Below are positions 1-28,700 of a DNA stretch of 64,000 bases, piece by piece; positions within the stretch are counted from its first letter, which is position 1; each line of letters begins with the position of its first letter. The notes beneath the pieces are model-generated. The model had not been told where the DNA came from. It saw nothing but the letters and a program-made list of their open reading frames with translations, and made no database searches. Both the position numbers and the translations under genes were made by a program. The stretch covers positions 2,542,001 through 2,606,000 of the forward strand of contig CM039002.1 of NCBI GenBank assembly GCA_017499595.2. The letters run 5' to 3'. This DNA is from Psilocybe cubensis. Lineage: Eukaryota.

Positions 1-33
1 TAAATCTGCTCTGACTCCGAACTCGAATCGACA

Positions 34-7440: not shown

Positions 7441-7955
7441 GATCTAAATGTTGAAAGTGTAGTGTTTAATTGGAGGTCCAATGAAACAAATTGGGATTGG
7501 GACAACTGTGATTTTCTTGAGATCGGAGAAATTTGGTGCTAGGGTAGTGTATTGAATTTCCATGATTGCAAGGTATCAAAGAGTGGGTAAGTACACTGGC
7601 AGTCTATGTTACAGTCCATCCCAACATCGGTTTATACTATCTATTAAGGGGAATCTATGCTGTCCACTAATTACCCCTGCCCTCCTCCACAGGTATCCAT
7701 TGTAGCTCCAAATGAGCTCCTAGATGACATTCAGTATCTTCACCCTGCAATTTCACTACATTCTGGCGCCTCGGCAAAAACGCCGTTCGAGGCAGTATAA
7801 GGCCCTAGGTAGTGAGTGATAAGGAAGATCGCCGCAAGGAATAATTATCGGAGGATTCGACGAGGGAGACTGTTACAGTGCTATAGGTTTTTGGACCCCA
7901 AGCTAAGCCGAGGATCGAGGATGAGGAAGATCTCTATGGATCCCTGGATCCTGAT

Positions 7956-10219
7956 CTATGAACAGATGTTGGGGTACATTCGATCCGTGGGATCCTGGGG
8001 GATCCATCCGCCTTGCAATCCGCGTTGGTAACTCCACTCATCGGCATTCTCAGCCTAATAGAAGAAAATAGAAAATGTGGGTCAGCGATATGGCACATAT
8101 AGATATGCGATATGTGTGCAAAGCATGGGAACGAAGAAGAAGAAGAAGCCATCGACAACACATGTATGATAACGGAGTGTGTTAAAATTAAGTAAACGCA
8201 GCGGAGATTCCAGAACTTCCAATGTCCCGATAGAAACCCATTTAAGAGCTATCAATGTTATTGGGCACATCATACTCGCTCGCGGGAATGTTCAATGTCA
8301 GGGAAATTTTCTGAGATCCCATTTGACGCATCCGAATTGAAAGCTTCATCCGAATAAAGCAAAGAAAAAAAGAAACAGACGACAAACTACAGCGTAAACT
8401 CACCTTCCACGTCCAAAATATCCAACCCTGGACCGCTTCTCCAAGTTCGACTTGCACTTCCCAATACCTGAGGTAAGACAAATACACGATCAAAACGCAC
8501 AGTCAAATCAGAAAAAAAAATGATGACCGACTTTCTCAGAAAAGTAATGTAATCTTGACTCCATGATGTGTAATTTCCCGTGAAGGGTGCGCAACTTCCA
8601 TGGACTTGCGATGTGGGCCCGGGGAACCACGTCCCGTCCCAGCGTGCACCAACGTTGCGGCCATTAAGCCATTTTGCACAGTCGGTGATTGCGTTGGACC
8701 ACTCCCCGGAGACGGTCCATAAGTTGGATGAGGCGTAAGATGTTAGCGTTGGCAATGTGTTAGTGCAAACAAACTACGTTGTAAATTGGATGTTAGATAC
8801 ATTAAGAAACCACGACATAGAAAATCGGAGACGCACATCGATATGTTCATCAAATGTCCTGTTTAGTTCTTTATCGCTGAATACTTGATATTCGTGCTAG
8901 AATAACGTTCTAATTTAACCATATCATGATATGTAGTACGAAAGAGCTCACATAGTCCATTAGAACTCCGTGTCCTTGTGGTGGGGTCAAAAAATTCGTC
9001 CAGCTCTGATTTTGTCCTGTTAGCTGTATCCATTATGAACCACCGAGTGAGCAAAATTGCGCACCTGGACTCCCAAGAAAGCATCGCCAATCATAATACC
9101 CATCCCATCACCAGCCACATCCCTCACCGCGTCATACGCAGTAGTCCAAAAATTCTTCACCACAGATGCCCAAGCACTACTTGTAAAGCCCGCCGCCTCA
9201 TTTAGCAGCTCCAACACGCTGATTTGATTTCCCACCTCCTTAGCGAGAAACACCAGAGTGTCCACTGTCCGTGTGACGTTATCAGGGTTGGTGGCCCACA
9301 CAGGGTTGTTTGTCCTCTGCCCTGAGTTGTCAAATCCGTTTTGCGACCCTGGTGCTCCGTGCAGATCAGCAATCACATTTAGGTTATATTTCTCCGCCCA
9401 CGAGAGTGCTTTTAGAAAGTAGGGCCAAGCCCCTGTGACATAAGGTGCTGTAGAGGTAGATGTGGATGTGTCGGATGAAGTCAGGGGGATGGACCAATAC
9501 CCAATCGGTATTCTGGTAAATTTTAATGAGATTTCACACCAAGAAAGAGCTCTACCCCGTACATACCGAACGTGATTAAGCCCCGCCGCTGAAATTTGAG
9601 CGAAGTCGTCTTCCGTTATCCACTGTTCCGGAGTTAGTTCGGTGACAATCAACACAAAAAGTGCATCCTTGCCGTTTCCCAATGATTTTGAAGAATGTTC
9701 TGAGCGGTTTTTGAATCGAGAAGTTGCCCTAGAGTGAATTCGTCGATGATATTATCGTTTCCTGTACTTTCGAAGACACTCGGTGTTATCCAGGGCTGGT
9801 GAAAAAGTGACGTCAGTGACATGTTGAACGACCGCATCAATGGATTCACCTCCAATACCAACCACCCTCCGCTGACAGATTTATCAGTACACACAGTGTA
9901 TTCGTAAAGAGAAAACATACATATTGACACCCCGGATTGTGTCTGTACCATAATTGAATGGTGTCGGTGTCGGAGACGACGATGTGCCTGATGCCGTCTG
10001 GGTCGTACGTGCAGATGTTCGCGTCGTTGGTGCAGAAGTATTCGCGACTCCGCCAATACCTGTGTTCGAAGGTGGCTGAAGAACTGCTTGGTTCCGATGC
10101 TGCAGACGGCATTTCTGCTGCCTTGCCTCAACCACAGAGCCAGAGAGGAGCAAAATAGCCTCGAAACAAAGGCACATCAACCCTAACGGAAGAACATTTC
10201 TTGGTCTGATTTTGCGCAT
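7956..10219 (-). CDS. Glycoside hydrolase family 5 exo-beta-1,3-glucanase (Exg1-like) with an N-terminal hydrophobic segment and S/T-rich linker
   Basis: Motifs [45 protein letters not shown] (acid/base), GEWS (nucleophile) and GWIFWTWK. Final exon [22 protein letters not shown]...CS* (TAG at 7956-7958). Confidence 0.93.
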
Positions 10220-11046
10220 CTGCTATCAAGGTGCCAATGCCGTTGTATAAGACGGGAGTACGTGGGGGTAGGTGAGGGTCAGGACCAAGGGTTGGCTCAC
10301 TCAGCAACGTGCCCTGTGTAATAGTGTGTTGTATGAAACGGTAAATGAAAGTCAAGAGTGAAAGACGCGGCGACTGGAGTAGAGAAGCCATGTCGGCTGA
10401 TGGAGATATGGTGCCGTTCGCCCATGAGGCCAAAGCAAATTTAGCTAATACTTTGTTCAGATTTCACCAAACTAGTAATCAGTTGCCGCATTCTAATAGT
10501 AATTTTTAATATTGTTCCTTGAACAGAGAAAGAGCAATGGAAGAAACTTACTATTATTATCTTTTAAAGACCAGGAAGGATTGCGCTTGCGACTTGCTTG
10601 CAATCATGACAAAAGAATGTCATGGCTCTCATGCCGGTATTTTGTGGCCGAAGTTGGAGTGTGCTTCCCACGACCCATTACGTCATCACCGGTGTACGCT
10701 TTCGGCCGGGAGACTCCGACAGTTGAAACGGAGTCCGAAGTGACTTCGCCGGCTCATTCGACTCTTCAGCTTCAAGCTTCAAGCTCTATACAGCTCTGTA
10801 GTTGAAAAGTTTGTAAAGTCCCATATGATAGGACCTAGGCTGCTTCTGTCTCAGAGTAGCATACTGTTCTTGTCACCTCAGAAGATACTGGCATTAACCT
10901 TATCATGCTTAAAAAAACGACCGTAGGTGATGCCACTACTACAAAGCCTGTTCTAGTTTTTGGGATCGAATCAAATATGAGTAAGCCGGTAATGCGATGT
11001 GGAAAAATGTACGAGGAATAAAGTAAAGCTCGATATACATGAAGGG

Positions 11047-12651
11047 TTATAGCTTTGAATTGGCTACGGTAGGCGCATCCGAAACTTTGACCACTCTGAT
11101 GGCAAAGTTAATCAACGCAAAGAAGTTGCATATCACAAGAAAAGACTCACAGTTTGCCTGTATTCCCTCCGCTGAAAAGCATTGGCAGCGCTACAGGCGC
11201 CTGTTCGATACCACCTTCGACGATGTGGAATTTACGCTTAATGGCACCGCTGGCAAGATCCTTGCCAAGCTCTTCTATTGCTGTCGGATATTCAGAGGCA
11301 TAATCCATACTAAAAACATTGATTCAGTTTGTTGGATATACAATGGTATTTTATACTACGTACACAATGAAGCCTTGAATTTTGGCACGTTGGGAAATGA
11401 GGTTAAGATAGCTTTGCAGACCCTTTGGCTTGGGGGCATCTATAATAATATAAATCAGCAAATGCAGACATTTTGGTTCCAACGAAAACTTGCTGTAAGC
11501 AGATATAGCACCTGATATAACATTATTTCAGACAATTTGGTGGATCTTTAGAGATAAACATACCACAGAGGACGATTCGTGCGTCCTTATTCAGTCGAGT
11601 AAGGAGGAAATCCAGAATCTCACCTGGAAGTAAACTCGATCATTAGCGTATACATTACCTTTTCAGAAAAATCTCACATACCACCAACGTTATCGAAATA
11701 GACATCCAGATACCCAACATCTTTCTTCAGGTCATTGTAGAAGGTGGGGCTCTTGTAGTTGAACGCTTTGATGACCCCCAGCTCATTCTCCAGCCAACGG
11801 CATTTATCATCGCTACCTGCAATAGCGTATACCTTGGCCCCGGCAGCCTTCCCAAGCTGACATGCAATAGAACCAACAGAGCCTGCTGCTCCCGACACCA
11901 CAAGCTTCTCTCCCGCCTTCAGCTCACCAATCTTTTTGAGACCCTGAATTATGACGTATGAGTGTATGAACAGCAGGGTTGTCTTATTTACGTACAAAGT
12001 AAGCGGTCAGACCTATAAAACAAATTAGTTACAGGTTCGCAGTGACATGAACATGTATATGTACGTACCAGAACTTCCTAGAATGCCCAAGTAGTCGAGG
12101 GGCTCAACACCACGAGGGATACTTTGGACGACCCCGACAGGTCAGTCAAGTTCCAGAAAAGAAGTTTAATAGACTCACACAAGCTTGTCGACGAACTTGT
12201 CTTTTATAACAGCGAATTCGGTCATGCCTAGATGGAGAGTATCGTTGCGTTAGGACACACAGCACTGTAGTGTAATGGCAATGATTGCGCACCCCATGGC
12301 CCGCTCACATTATCTCCCACCTTGAAGCGGCTTCCTGGCCCAACTTCAATAACCACTCCGAGACCCATGGCACGCATAACCTATTCTCATGTTTCGAGTC
12401 AACCCAGATTAGCGTCTTTGGCTTTGACGTACCTCCCCAATCTGTACAGGCGGAAGGTAGCTTCTCACATCACGGATATAGCCCCTCATCGCGGGATCCA
12501 AGCTTAGCCATGTGCACTGGACGAGGACCTCGTTGTTTCCCAACTTCAAAGAAGAGAAAGGGACGATTTCTGTGCGAAATGTATCTGGCTCGATATCGCC
12601 TTCCGGCCGTGAGTTGAGTACAATGCGTTTGAACTGGGATGGCCGGGGCAT
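11047..12651 (-). CDS. NADP-dependent oxidoreductase (MDR superfamily, prostaglandin/alkenal reductase-like) with C-terminal SKL
   Basis: Motifs LSLDPAMRG, VVSGAAGSVGSIACQL, AGSDDKC and YFDNVGG. Last exon VVKVSDAPTVANSKL* (TAA at 11047-11049). Confidence 0.9.
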
Positions 12652-12876
12652 TTTGGCGTTATCAATGTAACAGTGGTAATGGAGAGAAATGGGGGTTGGG
12701 GGTTCAGTAGCGAGTTAAAGCTAAACAGGAGTACTGGCAACAGCTTTATAATGGTACAAGTTCAGGTTCTTTCGTCAGGTACAAAATGTTTACCGGTAAC
12801 TTCATTCCCGGATATCCTTGTCGGCTTCGTCATGTCCATAAGAACGCCCGGCTTCGTGTACCGCCGTGATTCAGGT

Positions 12877-13211
12877 ACTATGTAGCTTTAGCTGGTGAAG
12901 AGAGATTAAGAGTGTGATTCTCTCGCATTAGGTGAGAATAAGCAAAGGAGTGTATGTAAAGAATGTATGTAGCTAGCAACCTGATGTCAATGATATCAGG
13001 GTTTGGGTGGGGAGCACCACCAAATCTGTGAGAGTCTGAGGTCCACGGTGGTCAGCGGCTAGACAGGGAAAAACAGAACAAATGGGAGACCAACGTGGAA
13101 ATGCCGTGCGTAACGCTAAGACTCGCTGATTTTGGATGGTGCAACCAACTCGAAATGCGAGGGAATACTCCGTGAGGCTGTGGAAGAGTCCAAAGTGAGC
13201 AAGGACCCCCA
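12877..13211 (-). repeat. Ngaro repeat B2 (3' terminal)
   Basis: Matches 13446-13780 (offset 569). Confidence 0.95.
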
Positions 13212-13284
13212 GACTGCGGTAGGAGTAAGACCCAAGACACGTCGAGTGACTCAGATACTGGGTACAGAGGGATGGCGGGTGGGG

Positions 13285-13445
13285 GAAAGGAAATTTTCTT
13301 GGACGATCTAAGGGTGGATGCGTCCAAAAATTGTTGCTTCGTCTGTGTGGTGAGAGGGAAAGCGGTGTCGCTCTCACCCGCTGACTCAGCACATAGTAGC
13401 CGTTCAGCGATCGTAGCATTTCATTACACTTCACACTGAACATAA
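13285..13445 (-). repeat. Ngaro repeat A2
   Basis: Matches 18856-19016 (offset 5571) and directly abuts B1. Confidence 0.95.
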
Positions 13446-13780
13446 ACTATGTAGCTTTAGCTGGTGAAGAGAGATTAAGAGTGTGATTCTCTCGCATTAG
13501 GTGAGAATAAGCAAAGGAGTGTATGTAAAGAATGTATGTAGCTAGCAACCTGATGTCAATGATATCAGGGTTTGGGTGGGGAGCACCACCAAATCTGTGA
13601 GAGTCTGAGGTCCACGGTGGTCAGCGGCTAGACAGGGAAAAACAGAACAAATGGGAGACCAACGTGGAAATGCCGTGCGTAACGCTAAGACTCGCTGATT
13701 TTGGATGGTGCAACCAACTCGAAATGCGAGGGAATACTCCGTGAGGCTGTGGAAGAGTCCAAAGTGAGCAAGGACCCCCA
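13446..13780 (-). repeat. Ngaro repeat B1
   Basis: Matches 12877-13211. Confidence 0.95.
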
Positions 13781-13955
13781 AAAGACCAGAGTAGGAGGGA
13801 AAGCAATGCCCGACGACGCGTCGAGCGAAATGGAGGACTCCCACACATCAGGAGGCGGGCAATACACGGGGAAAGGAAAAAACGCGACAGAGGAAGAAAA
13901 CGTAGCAGGAATAGACACTCACGAGAAACACAAGTTCACGGGTTGGAACGTCAGT

Positions 13956-16900
13956 TCATCCCCGAACGGGCGGGATGTTGAGTGTAATGCGATTGAACTC
14001 CGCAAAACATGCGGAATTCTGAATATAAGGTGCCAGGACCTTGGCGTGCTGGCGGAGATAGTTGGCAAAGGCGTCACTAGACCAACGACCCAGTGCCTTC
14101 ACCACCTCAAAGGGGACCCCGCGGAGCAAATACTCCAACACCGCGCCAATACGCAAGCCATGTCCGTGCAGCGGTTCAAGACCTGCCGCTGCTGCCGCCT
14201 TCTTGATGCGATCCAAAAAGGCTGTTCTTGTGAGCGGCCGCCGTTTACCAGATGCCGCGTGTGTGTAAGAGAAAAGAGACTCATTGCTGAGAGGGGAGTT
14301 GATAAGAAAGTGGTTGGCGAGAGCGGCTTCGGGATCAGATGGGCCATCTTGACGGGCCCAATACACCTCCTCGCCATCCGTGGGTGCACACTTTGTGCGG
14401 GGGATGAAGAAAACGGTTGTAGCATTGCCGGCGCGGTCGGTTACATAAGAAATGTTGGACTTCTTCACATGAGCATCAGGGTCAAAGGAAGCGAGGTTGC
14501 GAACTGTGAATTCGCCCAGGCGTGCGGCCGACCAGAAAGTTGACGTCAGACAAGCAAAAACGGCGGCGTCGAGTGGGACAGCAAGGTCAAGATGAGTCCG
14601 TATCGAGCTGATAATAGAAGGAGTGAAAGGTGCCCGCTTGGGGCGACGAGAGGAACGAGGTGCAAGCTTCATGCCAGCGGCAAGGGCGGCATCCACTTCA
14701 AGCTTGTTGTACACAAGCTGATGCCCATGAAGTGTATGCCATGCACGAATGCCATAGAACATGTTAGAAACCTGCGCACCAGAGTACAGACCCGCGCACG
14801 AGGAGAGAAAGGCAAGGAGAAGGATGTTGGTTAATGGGCAGCGCTGTTCCTCGGGAACTTCACGAAGATCACACCAGACATGAAAAACAAGAAGCGCACT
14901 GCCATATGCGCTACTCGTTCCATCAGCATATCGAGCACCCAGGACAGTAAGAACGCAGTCTAGATCATGTTCTGACAGAGGAACAGCATGACCTGCAGCG
15001 TCGAAGGCGGTCCGCGACGTTGCTGGGACCCATTTGAGCAAGCGCTCCGCAGCTACACAGTGTGGGCGAAGTGGGGATGGAGCTGGTACCAGATCTGCAC
15101 GGTATGGACGGGCGCGACGTCGAGAGGAAGGAGACTTCGTGGGCAAAGCAGGTCTCAAAGGGGAAAGGAGAAGCGCACGCGAGCGACGGGGTGTGATGGG
15201 GTTACCCAGCACGGCTGTCCCAGTGCGGGCGATAGAGCTCAAGTTCGTCAACGAAGAGCCGCGCGTTAGTCGGCTCTCGCGATGGGCGATCAGCTGCTGG
15301 AACTCTGTGTTTGAGGGTTTGGCTAGAAAACGCGGCGGATCTGGTGGTGGTTGCAGCGGGGCTGTCAAAACTGACAATGAGGTCGTGGAGACACGAGGGC
15401 AAGGTACATGGTGGGAGAAGAAGCGACTGCGACGGATAGATGCCCCGTGAGGGGCCGTCGGCTGGATTGTCATCGGAGGGGACGTATGCTGTAAAGATGG
15501 ACTCATCGCGGTTGTTGCTGGAGAGAAACGCGAGTATGCGTTTGAAGACCGTGTTGACGGCTGGATTTCTGCTCCGCCGGTTCCACCAACCTTCAACAAC
15601 GCCCATGTTGTCTCCGTAGATTCGGAGGCGAGGGGTGTCTGGTGCAATGGCACAGAGTGTGTAGACAAGAAGCTCGAAGCCGACAGCTTCAGCCCATCCA
15701 ATATCCCGTTTGCCATTAAGGGTCTGCCATCCGGGAAGAAGGCACCATGCACGCCAGCGGTTTCCAATGACGATTGCGATGCCAAACCCAGAGCTGGCGT
15801 CAGAGAAGGCTCTGACATCAGTGACCGCAACCGGGACTGGGATGGGACGCGCGAGGATGGGTTGAGATAATTTTCCCTTCCACCACTCGAGGTCGGCAGC
15901 AAGTGATTTGGGTGCGTGGCGAAGAGCGAGAGGACGTGAACTGGTGGCAAATCCACGGAGCATTGCTTCAAATCCAGTGAGATACGCGCGTCCAGCGGGA
16001 ACCACACAGGTACAGTGGAGAAGCTTCCCATACAGTTTTTGGACGTCTTCGAGAGAATGTTGAGACGCAGACAACCACGCCGCAATAGCATCCAGGTATT
16101 TTGACTTCTTGCTGCCTTCAATGCACACTGTGCGAGTTTCAAGGCACCACCCATAACCTGTGAAAGTGGCATAAGATGAGAAAGGTATGTCTTTAGCAGC
16201 CTCCCATGGTGTCCCGGTCTCTGAAGAAATAGAATCGATATCTGCAAAGCAATAAGAAAAACGGCTATCCTCCAGGGACCTGGAGGAAACCTGAGAGAGG
16301 TCCTGCAAAGGAAAACGGCAATCATCATCAGATTCCTCAACCGTGCCATCCACCAACAAGCCTCCAGTATAAAACACCCGACCACCCGAAAACTGAGGGC
16401 CCGACTCAGCAAACCGAACCGCAGCGCGGGTACGCTGTGCATTGTACTGTAAAAGAAACTTGCGAAGAATGCGAATGAAAAGATGATCATCAACCCACTT
16501 GGTGATGGGGCCAATGCCACGGGAGCGAAACACATCCACTGTGGCATCTTGAATGAGGCCAAACACACCGCCGGATGGTGATGCCCCAAACGCGCCTCGG
16601 GTGTCAACGCAAAACTGGTCATCTCCAATGCGGACAGCAGCAGCAGGCCACTGCGAAGGATGCAGAGGTACGGTGCGGAAGGCCTCAGATACATCCCGCA
16701 CGGCAAGCTGTGATCCAGGTGGAAGACGGCCCAGAAGCAGAGATACAACCGAAAAGGAACCCCAGGTGCAAGGAAAATTGGAAGCACAGGTATATGAATT
16801 GATGGAAGGGTTGGGAAACGAGGAGGAAGGTGAGGAGGGAAAGGAGAAATTCTGAATGATGCGGAATTTTCCTGGGCGGCCTGGCTTTGGAATGATCGAG

Positions 16901-17381
16901 AAAGGAGAAGTTTGGAAAGGGCCGATGAGAGATTCAAGATCGGCCCTCGTGAAAGGACCAATATAACGACCTTTCTCGAGCTCGAGTGCAATAATGTCAT
17001 TGAACTCTTGTTGGAATTGCTTGACAGATGGGCGATTAGGTGGGGATTGAGTAATGGAAATAAAAGGAAAATCAAAAATGAAACCGTGTTGAAACCCGTG
17101 TACAAGAAAAGGGTATTTTTGGTGAAGGCCAGACTCGTCAAGTAAGCGCTTCCAAGTGGCAGCTGGGTAGAGACACTTAATTTGAGTGCGCCTGAGCTCG
17201 AGAGCATTTCTGGGCGCCATGGGTGAATGAACCACACCCTGAACAGCGGTGTCTGTCTCCATGGCTGGACTGTGTGCACCCTTGTGTGGTCTGCCAATCG
17301 AAGCAGAGGGTCTGGCGCGAAGATTTGACAACGAGTGTTCTGCCCTCGCGGTCTGCGAAGGACGGGTGACTTCCATCCCAA
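13956..17381 (-). CDS. Retrotransposon tyrosine recombinase (recognisable domain about 13956-15150; upstream part overlaps RT/RH in another frame)
   Basis: Catalytic signature intact: SAARLGEF (R), PRTKC (K), GHGLRIG (HxxR), GRWSS (W), ANYLR (Y). The true start is unknown; the ORF begins at TTG. Confidence 0.9.
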   Translation of the reverse strand: MGWKSPVLRRPRGQNTRCQIFAPDPLLRLADHTRVHTVQPWRQTPLFRVWFIHPWRPEMLSSSGALKLSVSTQLPLGSAYLTSLAFTKNTLFLYTGFNTVSFLIFLLFPLLNPHLIAHLSSNSNKSSMTLLHSSSRKVVILVLSRGPILNLSSALSKLLLSRSFQSQAAQENSASFRISPFPPHLPPRFPTLPSIHIPVLPIFLAPGVPFRLYLCFWAVFHLDHSLPCGMYLRPSAPYLCILRSGLLLLSALEMTSFALTPEARLGHHHPAVCLASFKMPQWMCFAPVALAPSPSGLMIIFSFAFFASFFYSTMHSVPALRFGLLSRALSFRVVGCFILEACWWMARLRNLMMIAVFLCRTSLRFPPGPWRIAVFLIALQISILFLQRPGHHGRLLKTYLSHLMPLSQVMGGALKLAQCALKAARSQNTWMLLRRGCLRLNILSKTSKNCMGSFSTVPVWFPLDARISLDLKQCSVDLPPVHVLSLFATHPNHLLPTSSGGRENYLNPSSRVPSQSRLRSLMSEPSLTPALGLASQSSLETAGVHGAFFPDGRPLMANGILDGLKLSASSFLSTHSVPLHQTPLASESTETTWALLKVGGTGGAEIQPSTRSSNAYSRFSPATTAMSPSLQHTSPPMTIQPTAPHGASIRRSRFFSHHVPCPRVSTTSLSVLTAPLQPPPDPPRFLAKPSNTEFQQLIAHRESRLTRGSSLTNLSSIARTGTAVLGNPITPRRSRALLLSPLRPALPTKSPSSRRRARPYRADLVPAPSPLRPHCVAAERLLKWVPATSRTAFDAAGHAVPLSEHDLDCVLTVLGARYADGTSSAYGSALLVFHVWCDLREVPEEQRCPLTNILLLAFLSSCAGLYSGAQVSNMFYGIRAWHTLHGHQLVYNKLEVDAALAAGMKLAPRSSRRPKRAPFTPSIISSIRTHLDLAVPLDAAVFACLTSTFWSAARLGEFTVRNLASFDPDAHVKKSNISYVTDRAGNATTVFFIPRTKCAPTDGEEVYWARQDGPSDPEAALANHFLINSPLSNESLFSYTHAASGKRRPLTRTAFLDRIKKAAAAAGLEPLHGHGLRIGAVLEYLLRGVPFEVVKALGRWSSDAFANYLRQHAKVLAPYIQNSACFAEFNRITLNIPPVRG

Positions 17382-17637
17382 ATGCGCGGGAGGCGACAGG
17401 ATCGAAAGTCGTGGGAACGGCGGCCCAAACAGACAGCGCAGGCGGGCTCCGATGCTGCGCCGCTCCGAAAACCCTGAGGCTGCTTGTTGTTCTCGCGGGG
17501 TTGGCGGTAGGGAGAAGGAGATCGACGACGTTTGGAGTCACGATGATTGCGAGGAGGGCTGTCAGAGCGCATATGGGACTGAGTGGAACGTCCCGACCGA
17601 TGGGTGTCTGCTCTGTCGTGAGACCCACCCCATTTTG
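15202..17637 (-). CDS. Ngaro pol: reverse transcriptase + RNase H
   Basis: RT motifs SPFSIIPKPG..KFRIIQNFS, DVSEAFR, FGASPSGG and WVDD. RNase H motifs FSDASS, AEAVGFE, GDNMGVV and NPADGPSRG. Confidence 0.93.
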   Translation of the reverse strand, partial: QNGVGLTTEQTPIGRDVPLSPICALTALLAIIVTPNVVDLLLPTANPARTTSSLRVFGAAQHRSPPALSVWAAVPTTFDPVASRAFGMEVTRPSQTARAEHSLSNLRARPSASIGRPHKGAHSPAMETDTAVQGVVHSPMAPRNALELRRTQIKCLYPAATWKRLLDESGLHQKYPFLVHGFQHGFIFDFPFISITQSPPNRPSVKQFQQEFNDIIALELEKGRYIGPFTRADLESLIGPFQTSPFSIIPKPGRPGKFRIIQNFSFPSSPSSSFPNPSINSYTCASNFPCTWGSFSVVSLLLGRLPPGSQLAVRDVSEAFRTVPLHPSQWPAAAVRIGDDQFCVDTRGAFGASPSGGVFGLIQDATVDVFRSRGIGPITKWVDDHLFIRILRKFLLQYNAQRTRAAVRFAESGPQFSGGRVFYTGGLLVDGTVEESDDDCRFPLQDLSQVSSRSLEDSRFSYCFADIDSISSETGTPWEAAKDIPFSSYATFTGYGWCLETRTVCIEGSKKSKYLDAIAAWLSASQHSLEDVQKLYGKLLHCTCVVPAGRAYLTGFEAMLRGFATSSRPLALRHAPKSLAADLEWWKGKLSQPILARPIPVPVAVTDVRAFSDASSGFGIAIVIGNRWRAWCLLPGWQTLNGKRDIGWAEAVGFELLVYTLCAIAPDTPRLRIYGDNMGVVEGWWNRRSRNPAVNTVFKRILAFLSSNNRDESIFTAYVPSDDNPADGPSRGIYPSQSLLLPPCTLPSCLHDLIVSFDSPAATTTRSAAFSSQTLKHRVPAADRPSREPTNARLFVDELELYRPHWDSRAG

Positions 17638-18801
17638 CTAGCGCGTCGGACTGGACAGCGAGTAAAGCATAAACAGCAAAGTATAAGGCATAAAGCGGAA
17701 AGCAGGGTGCATGGTTGGGGAGAGTAAGGGTCGAGAAAATAAAGCGGCGGTGATAAAGCGGCGGGGGGTAAAGCAAAGAACGGCAAGCAACGAGCGTAAA
17801 GCAAACGGCGTGTAAAGCAATATGTGTGATGCACGGGGGAGCAGAATGAAAATAACAGCGGGTTAGTTTGATACACTACTGAGAAAGAGAGGAGCACGCA
17901 CCCTCGCTAGTTCGTATTGTGCATCTCTGGCATCGCGGTCGTCGTCTATAACCTTGGCTTTGATTTTCCTGTACAGCTCGTCGCTGAAGCCCGCCAGATC
18001 CCAGCCTCCTTCACCGGATGCAATGGAGATATGCCAATCCTTGCGAATACTCTCCTGGTAGGTAAAAAGCGCGAGGCGATTGAGGCGACCAGGGTCAAAA
18101 CGCGACGAGTGGTTCTCGATGCCTTCGAAAAAACCAATGAACATGAGAACACGTTCGGCTGGCCAGCCGGTGCGGCGAATCGCAGTAATAAATCTGGCAG
18201 TGGCAACATGAAATTCCTCCCACGTCAAGTCTTTATCCGGGACGACGCTGCGTGAGTCTTTAGTTACAAGAGAAGGAACAAACGAGGCAACCCCAGATTT
18301 CCAAACAATGGACATGGATTCGTCGGACGTGGCGGCATGGGCGCTAGCACGGGCGTCTGCAACGCCGGCATTTGTAAAGTACCAAAGTTCGACGTACTTG
18401 GCAGCGTCTAGACGGCGAAGGGCGGCGGGGTTGATGACGACAGGGAGGTCAACCGGGATTGGGCGATCAAGAACAGGGCAAAACTTTGCTCGGTTCTTTT
18501 TCACTTCCTCCAAATGGGCAGCCTCTGCATCTTGTTTGAGAAGCTGTGCGGCCTGGTCAGCCGCTTCCTTATCGAGGCGCGCGCGTTCCTCGGCCCTGGC
18601 AACCTCGTCTTCGCGCTGTGCTTGCCACGCGGTTTTTTGAACCTCGTTCATGGCGTGCCATATAGCAGTCAGCGCCGCTACGGCTTGTTCGTCGGTGGCG
18701 CCCGGGACGGCAGTTTTGTGGGCGTCGCGAACGGCTTGAAACGCAGGGAGCGTGTAATCCGGAGGGACAGCGTCCGTAGGATCGTCTACAATGCGTGCCA
18801 T
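17177..18801 (-). CDS. Ngaro gag-like protein, two exons (18801-17902 and 17650-17177), with C-terminal Cys/His zinc fingers
   Basis: Exon 1 MARIVDDP...YVELWYFT...QYELAR ends at donor AG|GTGCGT. The phase-0 acceptor CAG at 17653-17651 joins SDALAKW...CAVCLGRRSHDFRSC...CFDWQ...CSGCGSFTHGAQKC. Confidence 0.8.
17651..17901 (-). other. Putative spliceosomal intron within Ngaro gag (251 nt)
   Basis: GTGCGT donor at 17901, CTAAC at 17866-17862, no AG dinucleotide from 17875 to 17653, then CAG. Removing it restores the frame. Confidence 0.8.
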
Positions 18802-18855
18802 GGCGGGAAATTTTTTCTGAGAGGCCGATTTACTGAGTTCTGACGAACAGAGACT

Positions 18856-19016
18856 GAAAGGAAATTTTCTTGGACGATCTAAGGGTGGATGCGTCCAAAA
18901 ATTGTTGCTTCGTCTGTGTGGTGAGAGGGAAAGCGGTGTCGCTCTCACCCGCTGACTCAGCACATAGTAGCCGTTCAGCGATCGTAGCATTTCATTACAC
19001 TTCACACTGAACATAA
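18856..19016 (-). repeat. Ngaro repeat A1 (5' terminal)
   Basis: Matches 13285-13445. Confidence 0.95.
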
Positions 19017-19128
19017 GTGATGATGTTGTCGAGCACCGGGATGAGTGAGCACGGTTGTCGGGGAGGCTTTTCCACCATCACATGTGCCTCGGACACCGCC
19101 GAAACGACGGACGAGAGCATCATGAAGT

Positions 19129-19483
19129 TAGGGGCTTAAACTTTCAAAAGTTCAACGTCCAGTATCAATGTTCAAGTTCAGTTTAACAGCATGTCATTGT
19201 TAGTGGCATCTTCGTTTAATTTTTTCCAAGCAACTTAAATTTGAGATACAATGAGGTCCAGATCGAGATGTTGTCAATCAATATCCTAATGACTCAATCT
19301 CTCTCGAGCTCGATCATGATGATAGTAATAAATCGACAATTTGTTCTCCAGCGGGACAGTATAGATCAACAAATTTAAAATATAGAGATCTATAGGGCTA
19401 GGTATAATGTTAGCTGAGCAACTTTATCATTGGCTAAAATGTTTTTGACCGAAATGGAGTTGAACTTGGGTTGAACCGCCCTA
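19129..19483. mobile_element. Possible degenerate non-autonomous TIR element (TAGGG...CCCTA ends)
   Basis: Left end TAGGGGCTTAAACTTTCAAAAGTTCAAC resembles the reverse complement of the right end, TAGGGCGGTTCAACCCAAGTTCAAC. AT-rich interior; no TSD seen. Confidence 0.3.
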
Positions 19484-19727
19484 TGTCCCAAAGGCAGAGT
19501 AACTTCGCCAAACATCTTGACATTAGCAAATATATCACTATGCACTTTCTGTCACTAAATTAATGTCAATCGCTCTGGCGACACGATTGAAGCCGCTCTA
19601 CAATACGAGTACACTTGATCCTGAAATAATCGACCTAACACCCATGAAACCAATGTCCTTGGCAAACTTATCGCTTGCTGTCTTACCAACATCTTTCTGC
19701 GGCCAATTAATGCCACAAATATGCCTA

Positions 19728-22700
19728 TCAAACCTGCATACTTCCATTGTTGCCTGGGGCGTGCTCGAAAGTTGCGATGGTAGGCTTTTCCTGCGATGAA
19801 GTGTCGGCAAGGTCAACCATGCTCTGAACACTATGGCGTCTATCTCCATTGTTTTGTTGGAGGGTTCGGCGGTGATTTGCGTGGTGGTTAATAAATTCCA
19901 ATCCTCCTGAGCTGACAGCTAAGGACATAATTTCTAGTGAGATGCGAAAGACGGTAGGTAAACAAGAAAACTTACGTCGGTCTGAATCGACAATGAACAA
20001 TTCATAGATGGTTGCACCCAAAATGGTGGCTGGGATGTTGACCAGAGCTGCAATGGCGGAATAAGCTCCTCCTTTGGCTATTCAAAAATCATTGTTAGAG
20101 GGTAATTTCACTGGTTTGTAATGTTTGATAATTTACCTTCAACTCCATAGATAGTCATCGCTGCCAAACGCGCGCCTACATCACGGGCGGCATTCAATGA
20201 CACTGAGGAAAATAATTAACTTTTTAGGCAATTTATGTCAGACGCATGCATGCTCACCTCCTGGTACTGAAAAGCCCCAGATAGATGCAGCACTATAGGA
20301 GACGATCAGGCCTGATATTATGAAAATGAAAATTGTGTAGGGAAGGGGGCGAGTTCGAGAGAGGACAAAGTAGCCTGAGTACGGACAGAGTTTTGTAGAT
20401 ATTTATGTGTTTAGCACGGAAAGAGATGGGAAAAAAATAGGAAATATGATTCGATACGTCCTTCGGTGTGTAACGACGTCTCCGGTAAGGTGCTAACTAC
20501 TGACTACGCGTCTATGCTGTGGCCATATGGCGTCGACGATGCCAAGTGAGTGTGTCCGCAAGCGTCATGTGACGTGTTTGTTGTGAGTCGCGTCGCGCGC
20601 ACGCGTATCCAAATCCCTACATCTCCCCCCCACTTTAAATTTCAGGCTCCTGGCTGAAATTTCGGTTTCGGTTTCGAGTCTACATCCTGCGGCCCACTCC
20701 CTAGTGCTATTCGTGATATGGATCCATCCAGTCACGACCTGATATGTGGCCTGCTCAAGACCCAGTCTCAAGTGGCCTCTATCACCTCCTTTCCTCTCTA
20801 TTCGGTCAGTCCTCCTCCCCTCGCCATTCATTCTTCCTTCTAACTCTCTAACTAGCTCTCTCCATTGTCTATATGCCCTCGCTCGTCGTCTCTCGTCTCC
20901 GATCTCACTCAATATCTTTTCTCTTCCAAATTTCTCTTTCCCTCCTCCCCCCTCTTTCACACCTCCTCCCCCCTCTTTTGCACCATCGCCCGCTCGCTAT
21001 TCCTCGTCGCCGTCGAACTCCTCGCTGTTTAGGACCTCCGTGACCTCGATGACCTGTCGATTCCGCGGATAATAGGGAATTAAACGAAATGCTGCGTATT
21101 TCAGCTTTGATTCAGCTCCATCGAGTTCTGCCAGACGGTATGAACCTCCTTCGGAGCGGCGTACGACGACAAGTGGTCCCATGTATCTCGGCTTGCCCTT
21201 CCTTCCCACTTCAGCCTCGACCTTCTTGTTCAAGACGAGCACTAGTTCTCCGGGTTGAAAATTATAATCAATGATCTTATGTTTGTTTTTCTCTTCAAAT
21301 TCGGCAATGGACTGATATCTTCGCTTTAGAACACGTTCGTGGACCAGGGCTAGGTCGTCGTCGCGTCGCTCAAGTTGTCTTGCGCGCATACCGAGGAGTT
21401 CAGCGGTTGAAAGCGAACGGTCGATGTCCGGGAGTAGGAATGTTGCGTGAGTGAGGTCAAATGGTAGGAGCGGCTCGATTCCGTGCACAACATAGAATGG
21501 TGAGTACCCGATTGATTTCCTGATTGTAATTCGCTCAGCCCAGTACATGAATGCTACCCTCTCGTCCCACTTTTTCAAGGACCCGTCACCCGACTTGATC
21601 AGCGCTGTACGAATTGGGGTGTGCGTTGTTTCGACGACACCGTTCGCTCTCGAATTATAGCCAGAAATTCGAATATGGCTCACGTTGTATCGCTCGGCCA
21701 GCCATTCTAGTGCCGCCACGAATGGAGGTCCGTTATCCGTTATCATCTCAAATACTACTCCCCACCTCAACATCAACTTCATTAGAATGAAATTGCCTAT
21801 CACCGCCGCCGTCTCCGTCTTCAACTTATCCCATTCTGGCCATGTCGACATCCCACATCTTGCTTGGACAATATATTTGTACCCGTTTGAGGGTGGCATG
21901 TGCATTGTGTCGATATGGCATCTGCAGAACAGCCTTTCGGGTATCATTACGGTAGGTGGGATTACAACTTTCTCGAGCGACATCAATTGACATTGGTGAC
22001 AGGTGTCGATGAACCATCGAATATCCTTATCAATTTTTGGCCACCAGTAGCGATCGGCAACGTTATGGCGAGTCGCAAAGTACCCTCGATGACCTAACAT
22101 GTCATGTCCTTCGACTAGAACCTCAAGCCGGTCTTCTCCAAATAGCACGAGCTTGTGACGTATGCCGCTATCTCGACGCCATAATCTGTTCGCCTGGACA
22201 AAGAACCGACTGGCCTTCTTCACAAATCTCTTCAGTGCAACCCTATCGAGATTTGGTGGTGGTTTCAGTGTCTCCAGGTAAGTCTTGATTTGCATGAGCT
22301 CGTCGTCGAGTTGTCTGACTTCCTCTGTGTCTGGTAACCCTCCCTTTTCTGTCGCTTCCGCCATCTTTCTCTTGAATGCTGCTACCACTGCCTCCTCCAC
22401 ACTCATCACTTCTCCCTCTTTCGCTCCCTCGCTAATTTTAACCCCTGGTTCCTTCACCTTCACATCCATTCCTACTGCACCCTTCCCCTCGCTTCTCTTG
22501 TTCTTCCCTTTTAAACCTCGCTTTCCTATCCTCGGCCATTGATCTCCCTTCTTCCATCCCATTCCTGCCACTATCCACACCCCACATTGATACAACTCCT
22601 CCACCCACTGTTCTGCATCCTCCTCTGTCTCGTCCTCCTCGCCTTCAACCTTCCGCCTCCGTGACAACCCATCTGGACCCTTGAAGTTCTTCCCAGGGAC

Positions 22701-25700
22701 GTGGACCAGCTTGAAATCGAACATCAGAATGGCAGCAATCCATCGGTTCATAGCTGCGTTTGGATGCGTATCAGGGTTATTGATCATACCCTTGATATAT
22801 TTTGCGTCCACTTCGATGGTAAGATTTTGCACCCCAACAATCCAAATTTTGACTGAATGAATTGCTCGAAACAGGCCGTATAATTCCAGCTTTGCCTGCG
22901 AGTAGCGAGCTTCTCGTGGGTTCCATGGTATAGAACCGAACCGTGCAATTATACGTGCGCCGTTTGCATCCAACTGCATGAGAATGAAACCAACTGCAAT
23001 GTTTGAGGAGTCAACTTGAAGAATGACCGTAAAGCCACTCTTGTAATCGATGGGGCGGATTGCTGGGCATGTCGTGACCGCAGTCTTCAGTGAATTCATT
23101 GCGTTTTGATGTTCCTTGTCCCATTTAAACTGAACTTGCTTCTTCGTTAGGTTGACCAATGGGATTGCAATCGCCGCAAAGTCCTTCACCCACTTCCTCA
23201 CCACACCCGCCACTCCTAGAAAGCTTCGCACGTCGGTCGCGTTTTCGCATGGTGGCCAGTTCTCAATTTTTATCACGCTCGACTTATCCGGTTTACGCCC
23301 TTCGTATGTCGATATCTGTCCCACTATCTTTGCTTCCGGCTGACACAAAATCAGTTTCTTCGCAGATGCTGTGGCGCCAGCGTGTGCTAGTCTGTGAAGA
23401 ACTCGATTCACGTCCATCAGGTGCTCCCACACAAACCTCCTCACTCCCGGATTCTCCTCCATCACCTCATAACCTCCGCCCGCCAACTCATACCTCGTCA
23501 TTGGACCCAGGACCGCTATGTCATCGGAAAAATTCGGTGCAACTTCTGTTTCGTGTTGTAGGATGAATGCTACATCACGATGGAAGATTTGCAGCGAGTT
23601 TGTCCAACCTTGAGGCAACACAGTAAGCTGGTATGTTCCCGTTGGTGTTTCAAAGGCTGTTAACTCTCTCGACCGTTTGTCCAGCGTGTGGTGATCGTAA
23701 CCCACGAAAAGGTCAATTGTTGTATAGATCGAGCGGCCGGCGCATTGCTCAGCATACAAATCAATCAATGGTGGTTGCGCAGAGTCTTTGATAGTGACTT
23801 CATTAAGCGGGACAAGGTTGTGCACAATGCGTAAGTCTTTTGATCCTTTCTTCTCGAACGTGATTGTTGCATGCCGATATGCACTTGTCGTAGGTTCTAT
23901 GACACCAGCTTTTAACTTTTCGTCGATGAGCTTGTTGAACCGCTCTCGCAATGCTGGTGGAACTGGAAACGAGCGCTTTACCCAAGGTTCATGTTCGACG
24001 ACCGGTATGACGACATCCGAGAAGTAGTCACTTCGAAATCTTCCTTTCTCAGCTTCCACCCATGCCAAACCTTTCTCGTTTGCTCGTAACACCGCCGCCA
24101 CCACTTTCTTCTCTTCCTCCCACAAAAAATCATTCTCCTCCACTCCAAGCATCTTCCACCTCTCTTCTGTCAACCTTTCTCCTGGCTTAAATGGCCCTGG
24201 CGTCATTGGTATTGTCGGTAACGTCAACAGCGGGTCCTCTGGAAAGCGACGTTGAACATTCGCATATTCTGGCATTGTTGTTGCAACCGGGTGAGTTTTC
24301 TTTGCTGCTGGCTTATACAACAATGTGTGCTGAACTTGATCATAGGTGAATGTTGATCCTAGAAGCTCATTTGCGAGTTTTGTACGAGCTTGACTGTGCG
24401 CCATCATTACCACCTCCTCCACACTCAATTCCACCACCTCCTCTCTTGGTTGCTCTGCTCTTGCCTCCCTGTACATCAACACCTTCTTCACAACCTTCCT
24501 CGCTCGCTCTCTTGTTGGTATAACCTTTGCTTGACGTTGGTCTTTAGGATCGTGCACAATCACATCTACCCGCCCATCGTTATGCTCAACCTTCCCTAGC
24601 CTCACGTACTTTTGCCACGGTCGTCCCAACAGCAACTCGAATGGGGCATCGAGAGGTGCGATGAAAGCGTGTACCATTGATGCAATGCCTCCGACCTCAA
24701 TCTCCATAAACTCGGCACATCCTCCCATCTCCTCCTTTTCGCCGGTCGCTGTTTCCATTGTCATTTGTTGCTCTTTGTTGACGCTGTGCCCTGTTCTCTC
24801 CCACAAGTCTTTCCTTATCACCACAATCTCTGACCCTTCATCTAACAACCCGACCGATGCAACCGTCCCGCATACAACGACATCAATTTCCCGAAGTGGT
24901 GTACAGTATTCGAGTGTTGGCATCTTGAAGGTAGCCGCTCCTGTTGTTGCTGTCGTTGCTGACTTCTTTTCTGTATCCAATAGTGAGGTTTTGGGGAATG
25001 CCTCGTTAGGTACTCGCACAACCTTGAGTTTCTCAACCATTGTTTTTCGTACGTCCCCGCTGAGTGCGTAAATATCGCCGACCGTAACCTCAGGTATAAT
25101 AGTTTTGAAGATTTTCTCTGCCATCTTCAAAGCCGCTTTTGGATCAGATATGCTGGACTCGTATGTGTATGCTTTCTCGTGTCCTCCTCGCTGAATGGCA
25201 TTGGGATCGAAACGGATGTGTTTGATGTCAGTGTGGTGTCCTTCTCCCTCCTCCGCCCTTGCCTTTCCTTTTCTCTCCTTCATCTCTCTCTCTATCCTCT
25301 TTTCCTGCTCCTTCCTCCCGCTCTCCTCATCATCATCACCCGTCTTCTTCCCGCTTCGTGTCTGCAGCAATGCCTCCGCTGTGGCCACCTCTTGCCATGC
25401 CATCCACTCCACTTTGCCCTCGCTTTCGTACCCGTTCTCCCATGGGATCTCCTTCCACTCGTTTCGCACTTCCTCCACTGTTTTCTTCCGCCCGCTACTT
25501 GCTTCCACTTTCACTTGTTCTCCATTGCGCCCTGTGGTGTATGTCTTAGCGTTTCTGGTAGTCTGCGTATAATAACCGCTTGTTGCAACATTGACATGTG
25601 GTGGTTGATCCCTCTGCCACCCTTCTTGACCTGGGGTTGGAACTGCTGACCCGAACCGCTTATCAACAGCGTCCTTCAAACTCTGCCCATATTCAAAACG

Positions 25701-28700
25701 GATAGGCTCTCCGTTTGCATATGTCAATCGAGCTGGAGTTCCAAACCACATGATGCGGCCAACTTTAACGTATTCGGCTGCGGCTACACAGTCACGTATG
25801 CGATGTTGTCCTTTTTTGCAGAAATAGCAGCTGTTTGAACTTGGGCCTGACATACCCGCCTGGGCGTATTGTATTGGTGGTGGGATTTGCATTTGCGGAG
25901 CGGCGAATGTTTGTGCCTGCGTATGATAAGCCTGAGTTTGATACGTTGGTGCAAATTGTGGCTGATAGGGTGCGTGTACTGCCATGTTTGTTGCTGCCGC
26001 CTGCTGAGTTGTTGCCAGTAGTGTTGGTATCCAGATATGCGCGTTTGGGTCCATAGCACAGAGTTGACCGTAGGTTGCAGCATAATTTGCGTCGCCAACT
26101 TTCAATCCTGCTAGCTTGCGTGTCAAGTCACCAATATCCTCTTCTCGAGTCTTCTTCTTTGGTTCGCCAAATGAGACTCGTCGAGTTCGCACCACATCCT
26201 CCTCCTCTTTCACCTTTGCAATCTCCTCTTCCTTCCGCCTCTCTGATCTTGCCCTCAACTCCGCCAGCTCTCTATCCTTCTCCCTCTCCCTCTCCCTCTC
26301 TTTTTCTCTCTTTTTCTTCTTCTTCTCCTTTGCATCCCGTCGCTTCTCCTTTCTCCTCCTCTTCCTCCTCTCGTCCTCACTATCTGACGATTCAGTGTAT
26401 GATTCTGATGTGTCCGATGACACAGACTCGGTTTCTGACTCGGTTTCTGAATCCAATGATGAATCCGATGAGCTGCTCTCATGTTTCTTCTTCCGCCGCT
26501 TTTCCTTCTTCTTCAGCTTCTTCTGTGCCCTCCTCAACTTCTCCTCTCGCTCAGCTCTCTTCCCTTTCCCTACATCCTCGTCTAATAACAGCCTCGCCGT
26601 TTTCAACACATCCTCCACCGCTGGAGCTGCCATCCTTCCCGTCAACCCTATTTTCTTCCCCCCCATCTGCACTTCCACCCGGTCTTGAAGGCGAGGCGGT
26701 AAGCCCATCCAGAAGTACTCGTTCAATTCGTCTTCAGTGATCTCGCCTTGTTTGACTAGCCAGAGACCAATTGGTTCAAAGTTTTTATTGTACTCGGTGA
26801 GCTCGACACTGGTCCTGATGCCACTGCCCTTTGTCGCTTTGGCAATCACTCTCGTCAAGTCGTCCACCGTGTAACTCCCACCCTTTGTCATCCACGGATA
26901 TTCCTCCTTTAACTTCTCCTTCATTGCCTTGAAGCTCCGTGGTCGGTCCAATCGGTAACCCTTGAAAGTTTTCCAGAACTTCACATCTGACTCTTTCCTC
27001 AAATAGTCCACCACTGCCTCTGCCATCATCTCGTCATTTAACCCCGCCGTCTTTGCTAACCTTTCGAACTTCCCCAGAAAGTCCTCCAGCTCATCTACAT
27101 CTCCTGACCAGCTAGGTGCTTTACTCGAGCCCGGCGCTGGCATCTCCTTCAAAAAGGTTGTCGTCGATCCTCCTGGTTGAACCATGTTGTTATTTGTCTT
27201 TGGTGCGTCCTTCTCTTCTTTCGATTCTTCTTTCTTCAATTCTCCTGATTGGGATTCGGGTATAGGGACTTGTAACGACTTTGGTTCTTCTTTGTTGGAT
27301 GTCTGGCTGTCTTGTTTAGCTGGAGCTGGTACGTCGGTTGCTTTGAACTCGTCTTGCTGTTGCTGATCTTCTTCGTCTTGCTTCGTTTCTTCTCCTACTT
27401 GCTGTTCCTTGTTAACGTCTTCTTTGTCTTCTTCTCCTGATTCTGACCTTGCCTCCGGCGACTCAGATCTGATAGATCTTGGTGGTGGATCTGATTCCTC
27501 GTTGAAATCGAGTTCTGGTAAGAAATCGCCGTCCGATGTTTGCCACTCTTTGGCGCTATCAAATTCGTCTTCACGAGGTTCGTCAACCGGCTCTTCAATC
27601 GACGCTAGTCGTGGTACACTTGGTGGTGTTGCAACAGACCACGCTCCTGGGAATGTACCTTGTGGAAATGAGAACCGATTGAATAACGGTGGTGGTGCGT
27701 GTCGAAACGAAAATTGGGTTGGCGTAGGTGTGATAGGGTCAGTATTTGGTGCGTTGACAGTGAGCTCGTTAGCGTCCTGTGGACTAACAGACGCAGATCG
27801 CTCCCTATAACTGACAGGTGCAATGTTGCGGCGATTTCGAGGTGCTTCCGAGGTGGGTAATAACGAGTTAGAACTGCTGGCTTTCGACGATGGTTTGTAC
27901 TCAGATTCGTCGTCCTTTTTCTTCCCTTTCCTTGGAGCTAACTTGGGTATCACTTTCCCAGAAGAAGATCGAATTCCCGAGCCCTTCTTGAGAAAGGAGC
28001 CTCGAACCGGTTGGGATGTCGAACTTCCGCTGTTTGAGGCAATATTGACAGTTCCTCAGTGACACGGGGTTTAACGGACAAGGGGGCGGGCAAAACCGGT
28101 TTTACTGGTTTTGTCCCCTCGCGGTGGGCTCCAGATGTAGGGAAGGGGGCGAGTTCGAGAGAGGACAAAGTAGCCTGAGTACGGACAGAGTTTTGTAGAT
28201 ATTTATGTGTTTAGCACGGAAAGAGATGGGAAAAAAATAGGAAATATGATTCGATACGTCCTTCGGTGTGTAACGACGTCTCCGGTAAGGTGCTAACTAC
28301 TGACTACGCGTCTATGCTGTGGCCATATGGCGTCGACGATGCCAAGTGAGTGTGTCCGCAAGCGTCATGTGACGTGTTTGTTGTGAGTCGCGTCGCGCGC
28401 ACGCGTATCCAAATCCCTACAATTGAAAATACTGACTATGCCAATGCGACAACGAAGGTGCTCATGACTGGTGGTACCAAGATATTCGAAGGGTCAAGGC
28501 AGGACCAGATGATCATTGCAATGAGGGTGCACTGGAAATGCATCTAATAAGCAACCAAAGAATTCATTCAATATAACGAGTTACTTACGTTGACGAACTC
28601 ATTCATAAATGTGCGGGAAAGAGATAGCCCAGGGAGACTGTACAATGCGAATGCACCGGCAGGACCGTTGGGGGTGAATTGGGTCGCGGCTAATGTTCCG

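Follow-up and report, generated by a model that had tools for sequence, protein, structure and literature searches.

A gag intron with a predicted distant branch point, and a putative frameshift site downstream of it, in Ngaro retrotransposons of Psilocybe cubensis and related elements

Introduction

How would an intron be spliced when its only canonical branch signal lies close to the donor and far from the acceptor, and what might such an intron do for a mobile element? The question is raised by a Ngaro retrotransposon in a 64,000-nt stretch of Psilocybe cubensis DNA (contig CM039002.1; the whole stretch is called the window here), whose gag gene is interrupted by an intron with a long zone devoid of AG. 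An earlier note on this DNA had read the zone as the mark of a distant branch point and had suggested that inefficient splicing would suit an element that must keep unspliced genomic RNA. Here we describe the element, compare its intron with those of its relatives, and consider how the overlapping frames downstream of it may be expressed.

Results

An intact Ngaro element with a divided gag gene

The element occupies positions 19016-12877 of the window (minus strand) and carries split direct repeats in the order A1-ORFs-B1-A2-B2. A1 (18856..19016, at the 5' end of the element) and A2 (13285..13445) are 161 nt long and 100% identical, as are the 335-nt repeats B1 (13446..13780) and B2 (12877..13211, at the 3' end), and A2 and B2 are separated by 73 unique nt (13284-13212). 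The coding segments, all on the minus strand, begin with an ORF of 300 codons for the N-terminal part of gag (exon 1, 17902..18801). Exon 2 of gag (17177..17650, 157 codons) encodes a basic linker followed by two Cys/His clusters (17440-17396 and 17245-17204). The pol ORF for RT/RNase H (15202..17637, 811 codons) is in the +1 frame relative to exon 2, and the tyrosine-recombinase ORF (13956..17537, 1193 codons), in the -1 frame, overlaps the whole of pol downstream of the predicted slip site described below.

The recombinase, which forms the end of its ORF, was assigned by Pfam (PF00589, E=4.7e-7, 30.2 bits against a cut-off of 27.1). A Pfam search with pol returned no RT match and just a weak match to PF00336, and a PDB search with pol gave no match; the ORF nevertheless contains WVDD (at 16497) and DASS, which we take to be RT/RNase H motifs. 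No methyltransferase domain was matched in Pfam, a search of limited sensitivity, and self-BLAST of the element returned direct repeats alone, with no inverted terminal repeats or ICR. These features agree with the structural definition of Ngaro in the available parts of PMC8547959 and PMC13465315, and judged from its sequence the element is an intact basidiomycete Ngaro retrotransposon.

The same genome holds a 99% copy, a decayed 77% copy and a family at 36% Gag identity, and the intron layout is kept in all of them, with an AG gap of 568 nt in the last. The 77% copy (L003 / L004, G000:C5:3252971-3256440) has suffered a ~1.6 kb insertion and a frameshift in gag-N, and its intron contains an expanded array of six tandem 7-nt repeats. 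The window copy is located at the 5' end of a host gene that is transcribed and has the same orientation. Two sets of RNA-type contigs with the same label (window positions 1-20000) lack 13341-20000 and run from 12876 directly into sequence like that from 19018 onward; contigs crossing 12876 to ~19018 correspond to an empty site, and the Ngaro insertion thus looks recent and polymorphic. At 20336-28421, 1.3 kb away from the Ngaro copy, is an LTR element whose 286-nt LTRs are 100% identical and which has a single ORF of 2352 codons.

The intron in the window

The gag intron (17901-17651, minus strand, 251 nt) runs from a GTGCGT 5' splice site in phase 0 (17896..17901) to a CAG 3' splice site (17651..17653), and with it removed the gag-N and zinc-finger ORFs form one stop-free frame that encodes 457 aa. 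The only CTRAY in the intron is the CTAAC at 17862..17866, the predicted branch point. Its A (17863) is 38 nt past the donor G (17901) and 212 nt ahead of the intron end (17651), so that the earlier estimates of ~35 and ~210 nt are borne out, and a pyrimidine-rich tract (17832..17861, 77% pyrimidine) follows directly. In this copy the TAA inside CTAAC is also the stop of the unspliced gag ORF.

On the minus strand, AGs are found at 17880 and 17877, and the next is the acceptor AG at 17652, which leaves the AG-free zone of 223 nt (17653..17875) that had been reported for the sense strand. At more than 100 nt ahead of the acceptor, the zone is of the size associated with distant-branch-point introns. 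Its composition is T84 C78 A31 G30 (73% pyrimidine), for which 4.2 AGs are expected, and none was found in only a small share of 100,000 mononucleotide shuffles (P(0)=0.0077). The zone also lacks GG and has GA once, it is the third-longest AG gap in the window (others reach 374 and 273 nt), and close to the acceptor are two degenerate branch candidates, TTTAC, whose A is 12 nt from the end, and CTTAT (33 nt). Taken from the window alone, the AG gap is therefore weak evidence, and its significance comes from the relatives. We also considered nested or recursive splicing at the AGs 17880 and 17877 and rejected it, as such AGs have no fixed position across families.

The zone is filled by repeats: it contains nine GC-N3-AY heptads (17832 to 17668) compared with 2.3 in dinucleotide shuffles. 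In relatives, too, the zones are built from short repeats, which are YGC-rich and differ by family, and only 7 of 19 families have 7 nt as their modal YGC spacing. These repeats may act as a cis signal for packaging, export or reverse transcription. The AG-free zone folds no better than its shuffles (z=0.35), which makes a structure bridging branch and acceptor unlikely and linear scanning the simpler reading.

Host introns were taken from RNA-type contigs, where, of the 15 joints listed out of 28, the 12 with GT..AG ends were used. Eleven of the 12 are 49-65 nt long, and the remaining one (217 nt) has a CTAAC 23 nt from its end and four internal AGs. The short lengths that the earlier note had given for host introns (50-70 nt) thus hold, whereas its placement of their branch point near the 3' end does so only in part, with an exact CTRAY within 40 nt of the end in just 6 of the 12; being the only canonical CTAAC cannot, by itself, fix a branch point. 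In several of the short host introns the spacing from donor to branch signal is 37, 37 and 39 nt.

Conservation of the layout in relatives

Relatives were found by an RT scan of metagenomes, which gave 527 candidates and 231 relatives, of which the best 80 were kept; locating loci by RT favours elements whose RT is close to that of the window. Alignment of gag-N offered no stretch conserved enough for scanning. With the window, L003 and L008 there were 83 sequences, and 51 of these contained both the gag-N end and the zinc finger. Four of the 51 were dropped (L071, with an insertion ahead of the donor; L077, with the donor deleted; L083, which has no intron; and L053, with an uncertain donor), so that 47 loci remained, which form 19 families at 70% RT identity. 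Donors were chosen near the gag-N end, blind to the downstream sequence, except that those of L065, L073 and L075 were set by eye. The family tree, built from such loci only, is unrooted. In L077, ~80 nt present in L075 are missing from the donor on, branch signal included, and the gap ends at a non-AG site; it is either a deletion or an odd splice product.

A donor-like hexamer stands at the same place in all 47 loci, and a CTRAY with its A at offset 37-48 from the donor is present in 35 of them, representing 16 of 19 families. The offset is 37-41 in 31 of those 35, looser variants occur in nine further loci, and in the 44 loci with such a signal the tract that follows is 63-100% pyrimidine. 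The TRA of the CTRAY is distributed 15/10/10 over the reading frames, all three being used, so it is not a conserved stop. Families sharing as little as ~45% RT identity, with intron bodies made of different repeat units, keep this layout, and intron length ranges from 82 to 600 nt, with a distance from branch signal to acceptor of ~210 nt in the window and up to ~550 nt in L008. Length modulo 3 varies even within families, indicating that the zone is not coding. Outside the L066 family the commonest donor is GTCAGT; within it (e.g. L089, L109), 11 of 12 loci have a predicted donor of the GC type (GCACGT, GCATGT), and such weak donors may add to intron retention.

AGs were counted from +55 to +160 relative to the donor, a span defined without regard to AG, in 19 automatically chosen family representatives. 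Seven AGs were observed against 52.6 expected (O/E 0.13), whereas the values for other steps were 0.53 (GA), 0.83 (GG), 0.96 (AA) and 0.90 (CT), and in the stretch from donor to branch signal AG was undepleted (15 against 10.3 expected, 1.45). The branch consensus and adjacent pyrimidine tract are thus found at the 5' end of the zone, with AG at normal frequency upstream. With two representatives swapped by hand and the span taken as +55..+170, 18 families have no AG, 30 GA, 25 GG and 69 AA, and the 19th (L054) has seven AGs by itself. An AG within 1-5 nt past the branch A is tolerated, occurring in 10 loci from four families.

Beyond offset 55, the first AG shares the frame of exon 2 in 38 of the 47 loci and in 16 of the 19 families (P=7e-6 against one third). 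The triplet at this AG is CAG in 35 loci, TAG in six, AAG in six and GAG in none; in exon 1, by comparison, 194 of 723 AGs are preceded by G. In 45 of the 47 loci the unspliced gag frame stops within the intron. In the protein library the gag-N family numbers 1906 clusters at E<=0.001, and among its best 150 members 88 have lengths of 280-330 aa, as expected if gene callers stop in the intron, and the library proteins P0021, P0041, P0049, P0098 and P0104 (430-465 aa) join gag-N to the zinc-finger region.

A few loci depart from the pattern. L054 and L056 lack the 5' branch signal, have CTAAC 13-14 nt from the intron end and contain 12 and 23 internal AGs; they nest in a supported clade of distant-branch families (97/93, in the unrooted tree), and by this placement are a derived family with a 3' branch signal, so that the AG-rich contrast consists of one family. 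An exact CTRAY 8-40 nt ahead of the acceptor occurs in 7 of 47 loci and 5 of 19 families, against ~2 of 19 expected from its density, and in one of the seven, L112 (82-nt intron), this motif and the 5' signal are one and the same. L055 has 294 nt devoid of AG yet no matching 5' signal. L083, at the junction predicted from its sister L071, has no intron, and may be a genomic copy or a transcript. In L050 (L050:2015-4492), gag-N, intron and pol form a single open frame when unspliced, and a stop is present in its sister L051; the library proteins P0012 and P0018 resemble this type of read-through. L044 (G000:C8:1205501-1210000, minus strand), from another recombinase-type family, has an apparent GTGAGT..CAG intron in its RT region with an AG gap of 205 nt (~4040-4284 of the reversed locus).

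These data bear on three other ways of reading the intron. It might be a conventional intron with a degenerate branch signal near the acceptor, the AG gap being a by-product of pyrimidine-rich YGC repeats: GG is absent and GA almost so from the zone in the window, GA is itself reduced across families, host branch signals are often loose, five families do have a CTRAY near the acceptor, and a human repeat-caused AG gap of 369 nt has its branch at -17 (available text of PMC1431707). We think this unlikely, however, for it leaves unexplained why CTRAY is fixed at offset 37-41 in unrelated intron bodies, why AG is at zero where GA is at 30, and why some AG-free zones are rich in G, with 17 GA and 18 GG but no AG in L008 and 12 and 15 in L104 (zone ends being set by the first AG); the one family with a clear 3' branch signal has, moreover, repeats that contain AG. 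It is scarcely credible that CTAAC is instead kept as the gag stop in a region translated from unspliced RNA, with AG lost through the removal of TAG stops. The position of the TAA in the window and the L050 read-through would fit, yet the frame distribution largely refutes a conserved stop, intron length modulo 3 shifts inside families, and nearly all loci stop in the intron anyway.

The distant branch point could also serve cleavage at the first step only, of the kind known from fission-yeast telomerase RNA, or a stalled lariat, leaving a 5' fragment or a lariat joined to exon 2, complete splicing being the minor outcome. A donor-branch pair that is strong and spaced as in the host, combined with so remote an acceptor, would suit this, as would the finding that long gaps hinder excision in S. 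pombe (available part of PMC9508853). Against it stand the acceptor in frame in 16 of 19 families, the existence of an intron-less copy, and the slip site, which needs ribosomes arriving from exon 1, and we consider it highly unlikely. Splicing from a distant branch point to the first AG is, for these reasons, the reading we prefer: the AG absence withstood both the test for base composition and that for conservation in related elements, either of which could have overturned the proposal of the earlier note, and branching at 17863 with selection of the first AG, as predicted from these patterns, is in our view quite probable.

A UUU codon and a hairpin at the entry to the downstream frames

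Among the 72 of 80 rows examined, 69 loci have a Phe 8-15 codons ahead of the first CxxC of exon 2, and its codon is TTT in all 69, compared with 63 of 188 Phe codons in the gag-N background, where TTC is commoner. The following base is C in 59 loci, T in nine and G in one. In the window this is the predicted slip site G_GGU_UUU_C (17467..17474, minus strand; UUU codon 17470-17468, context UUU_CGG), and it shows the sequence of a +1 site, UUU then C where an open +1 ORF overlaps. In 63 of 69 loci the pol frame has its last stop ahead of the site, and from the site the pol frame of the window is open for 755 codons and the recombinase frame for 1170. Eight of 20 representatives have a -1 frame that stays open for 1093-1170 codons from the site, the last stop before it being 10-115 nt upstream.

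A hairpin begins 6 nt past the slip site (17435..17461, minus strand; arms 17461-17455 and 17441-17435). Its 7-bp stem is supported by covariation: 91% of 147 cells are paired, compared with 25-55% in slid controls, although deriving the stem from these very sequences gives it an advantage over those controls, and 18 double-sided changes were counted against 6.1 in shuffles, none of 500 shuffles reaching as high, with relatedness ignored. The alignment comprised 21 of 24 families, the short-recombinase families L089, L082 and L125 being left out by choice; they lack the stem, with 2, 4 and 1 of 7 positions pairing.

A -1 site consists of an X_XXY_YYZ heptamer, a 5-9-nt spacer, a downstream stem and an open -1 ORF, and a U before the codon with a hairpin at ~6 nt is the layout of such a site. 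The window has G_GGU_UUU, a 6-nt spacer, the covarying stem and the open -1 frame; other families keep just U_UUU. Families with a U before UUU tend to have an open -1 frame (14 of 17, against 1 of 6 otherwise, P=0.009), an association that drops to P=0.053 without the two site-less families, the families not being independent. L055, L111 and L115 have neither the UUU site nor a long -1 frame, and L055 and L115 belong to separate clades, each among families with the long frame.

We also weighed the possibility that pol and recombinase are expressed without frameshifting, from alternative acceptors after the first AG, from AUGs of their own or from subgenomic RNAs, the Phe codon and hairpin then having a role in, for example, RNA packaging. 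In the window, the TAG at 17639-17638 (minus strand), 13 nt past the acceptor, is the last pol-frame stop and would, used as an acceptor, connect exon 1 with pol; five loci of the L066 family (L080, L081, L085, L089 and L099) have an AG at +4 that would have this effect too. Most families, moreover, have a pol-frame AUG 22-36 codons past the slip site, and both arms of the hairpin are also coding. An acceptor of this kind is, however, not a general route into pol, the +13 AG being absent from L003; L058 and L072 have no AUG within the first 300 pol-frame codons; and the exclusive use of TTT, where TTC is the commoner Phe codon, would go unexplained. Expression without frameshifting thus seems fairly unlikely. 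A +1 shift into pol, suggested by the codon and its context, is probable, and a -1 shift into the recombinase frame at the same slip site is only slightly favoured over its absence.

Discussion

The intron layout and its conservation, the depletion specific to AG, the arrangement of the frames, and the codon and stem signatures are brought together if the gag intron is spliced from a distant branch point, exon 2 is the place of frameshifting, and unspliced RNA is the genome. We give this explanation as a whole a probability of roughly two in three. Donor and branch signal would be spaced as in an ordinary host intron of 50-60 nt, with the branch A ~38 nt in and the pyrimidine tract next to it, and the acceptor would have moved ~210 nt off (as much as ~550 nt in relatives). 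Following the first step, the spliceosome would use the first AG beyond a few bases from the branch, and selection would as a consequence remove every AG from the tract. Splicing would bring ribosomes into exon 2, where the U-run and hairpin would cause part of them to shift +1 into RT/RNase H; in those families where a U precedes UUU, others would probably shift -1 into the recombinase ORF. Unspliced RNA, on which translation would stop in the intron, would serve as genome, and weak splicing would preserve that pool. Progeny copies would retain the intron thanks to the YGC-repeat tract, which probably acts as a cis signal; this is the least secure step of the scheme. For weak splicing that preserves genomic RNA together with an intronic cis signal, we see the odds as even.

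The best reading of the sequences is that spliced RNA makes Gag, Gag-RT and probably Gag-recombinase and that unspliced RNA is the genome. On this reading ribosomes gain access to the RT and recombinase frames by way of exon 2, and to exon 2 only through splicing, which lends indirect support to the earlier suggestion that unspliced genomic RNA has to be kept. In a stronger form, which we offer tentatively and would not bet on, spliced RNA would be the sole mRNA, for Gag (457 aa), Gag-RT (+1, ~1115 aa) and Gag-recombinase (-1, ~1530 aa); the weakly spliced intron would decide the fate of each RNA, the unspliced genome would be selected in trans via the intron-only YGC repeats, and the retroviral division of labour would be reversed.

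If the preferred explanation is true, a fungus with introns of ~55 nt performs long-range first-AG selection well beyond the spacings tested in fission yeast, and the relatives offer dozens of natural variants and one natural reversal for testing it. It would also provide testable answers to how the overlapping RT and recombinase ORFs of DIRS-order elements are expressed and how a retroelement retains an intron through reverse transcription. A single site feeding both +1 and -1 frames would be unusual in recoding. Gene callers, for their part, would be mis-annotating a large family (the 1906 clusters) as hypothetical proteins of 300 aa.

Introns are present in Chlamydomonas TOC3. The available part of the survey of fungal groups by Muszewska et al. 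(2013, PMC3783388) describes Ngaro elements that have in common with ours the split direct repeats, overlapping gag, RT-RH and YR ORFs and PF00589, and it does not mention an intron or splicing for them. The available text of PMC9210276 likewise mentions neither intron nor frameshift, that of PMC8547959 no frameshift, and DIRS/Ngaro is absent from the first 300,000 of the 449,034 characters of PMC5009743. In the literature searched we found no published account of the gag intron or slip site; Goodwin and Poulter (2004), the Poulter reviews or Repbase may mention the intron.

Each part of the scheme has a precedent, and the whole is an unexpected combination and a variant of known mechanisms. 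In vertebrates, exons with distant branch points have AG exclusion zones whose 5' end, as here, bears the branch signal and pyrimidine tract, AG being normal upstream, and AGs closer than 12-15 nt to the branch are bypassed (Gooding et al., 2006, available part of PMC1431707), which matches the tolerance of AG 1-5 nt after the branch A. Unlike the vertebrate case, the Ngaro intron belongs to a mobile element in a fungal host with introns of 50-65 nt, has its branch signal ~38 nt from the donor, and keeps its layout across a whole clade without sequence similarity. In a fungus, long spacing from branch to acceptor weakens splicing: S. pombe reporters with gaps of at least 30 nt are poorly excised, and its branch-distant introns, for which 21-39 nt counts as distant, need Sde2, Cay1 and Tls1 (available part of PMC9508853). 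By that measure the 210 nt of the Ngaro intron, which are unstructured, and the ~550 nt of L008 are extreme for a fungus.

The slip site resembles the UUU_CGN +1 sites of amalgaviruses and influenza PA-X in having UUU then C at the entry to a +1 ORF (available part of PMC5052127). It differs in the codon that follows, often CAN or CCN, in having two open frames downstream, and in the presence of a hairpin at 6 nt and a U before the codon, as in -1 sites. Spliced gag RNA is, finally, known from Ty1/copia elements, namely Drosophila copia and Arabidopsis EVADE (PMC7197481, available part), where splicing likewise divides the roles of the RNA and unspliced RNA is the genome. In those elements unspliced RNA gives Gag-Pol and spliced RNA gives Gag, whereas in the Ngaro elements described here spliced RNA apparently makes everything, and unspliced RNA just a truncated Gag.
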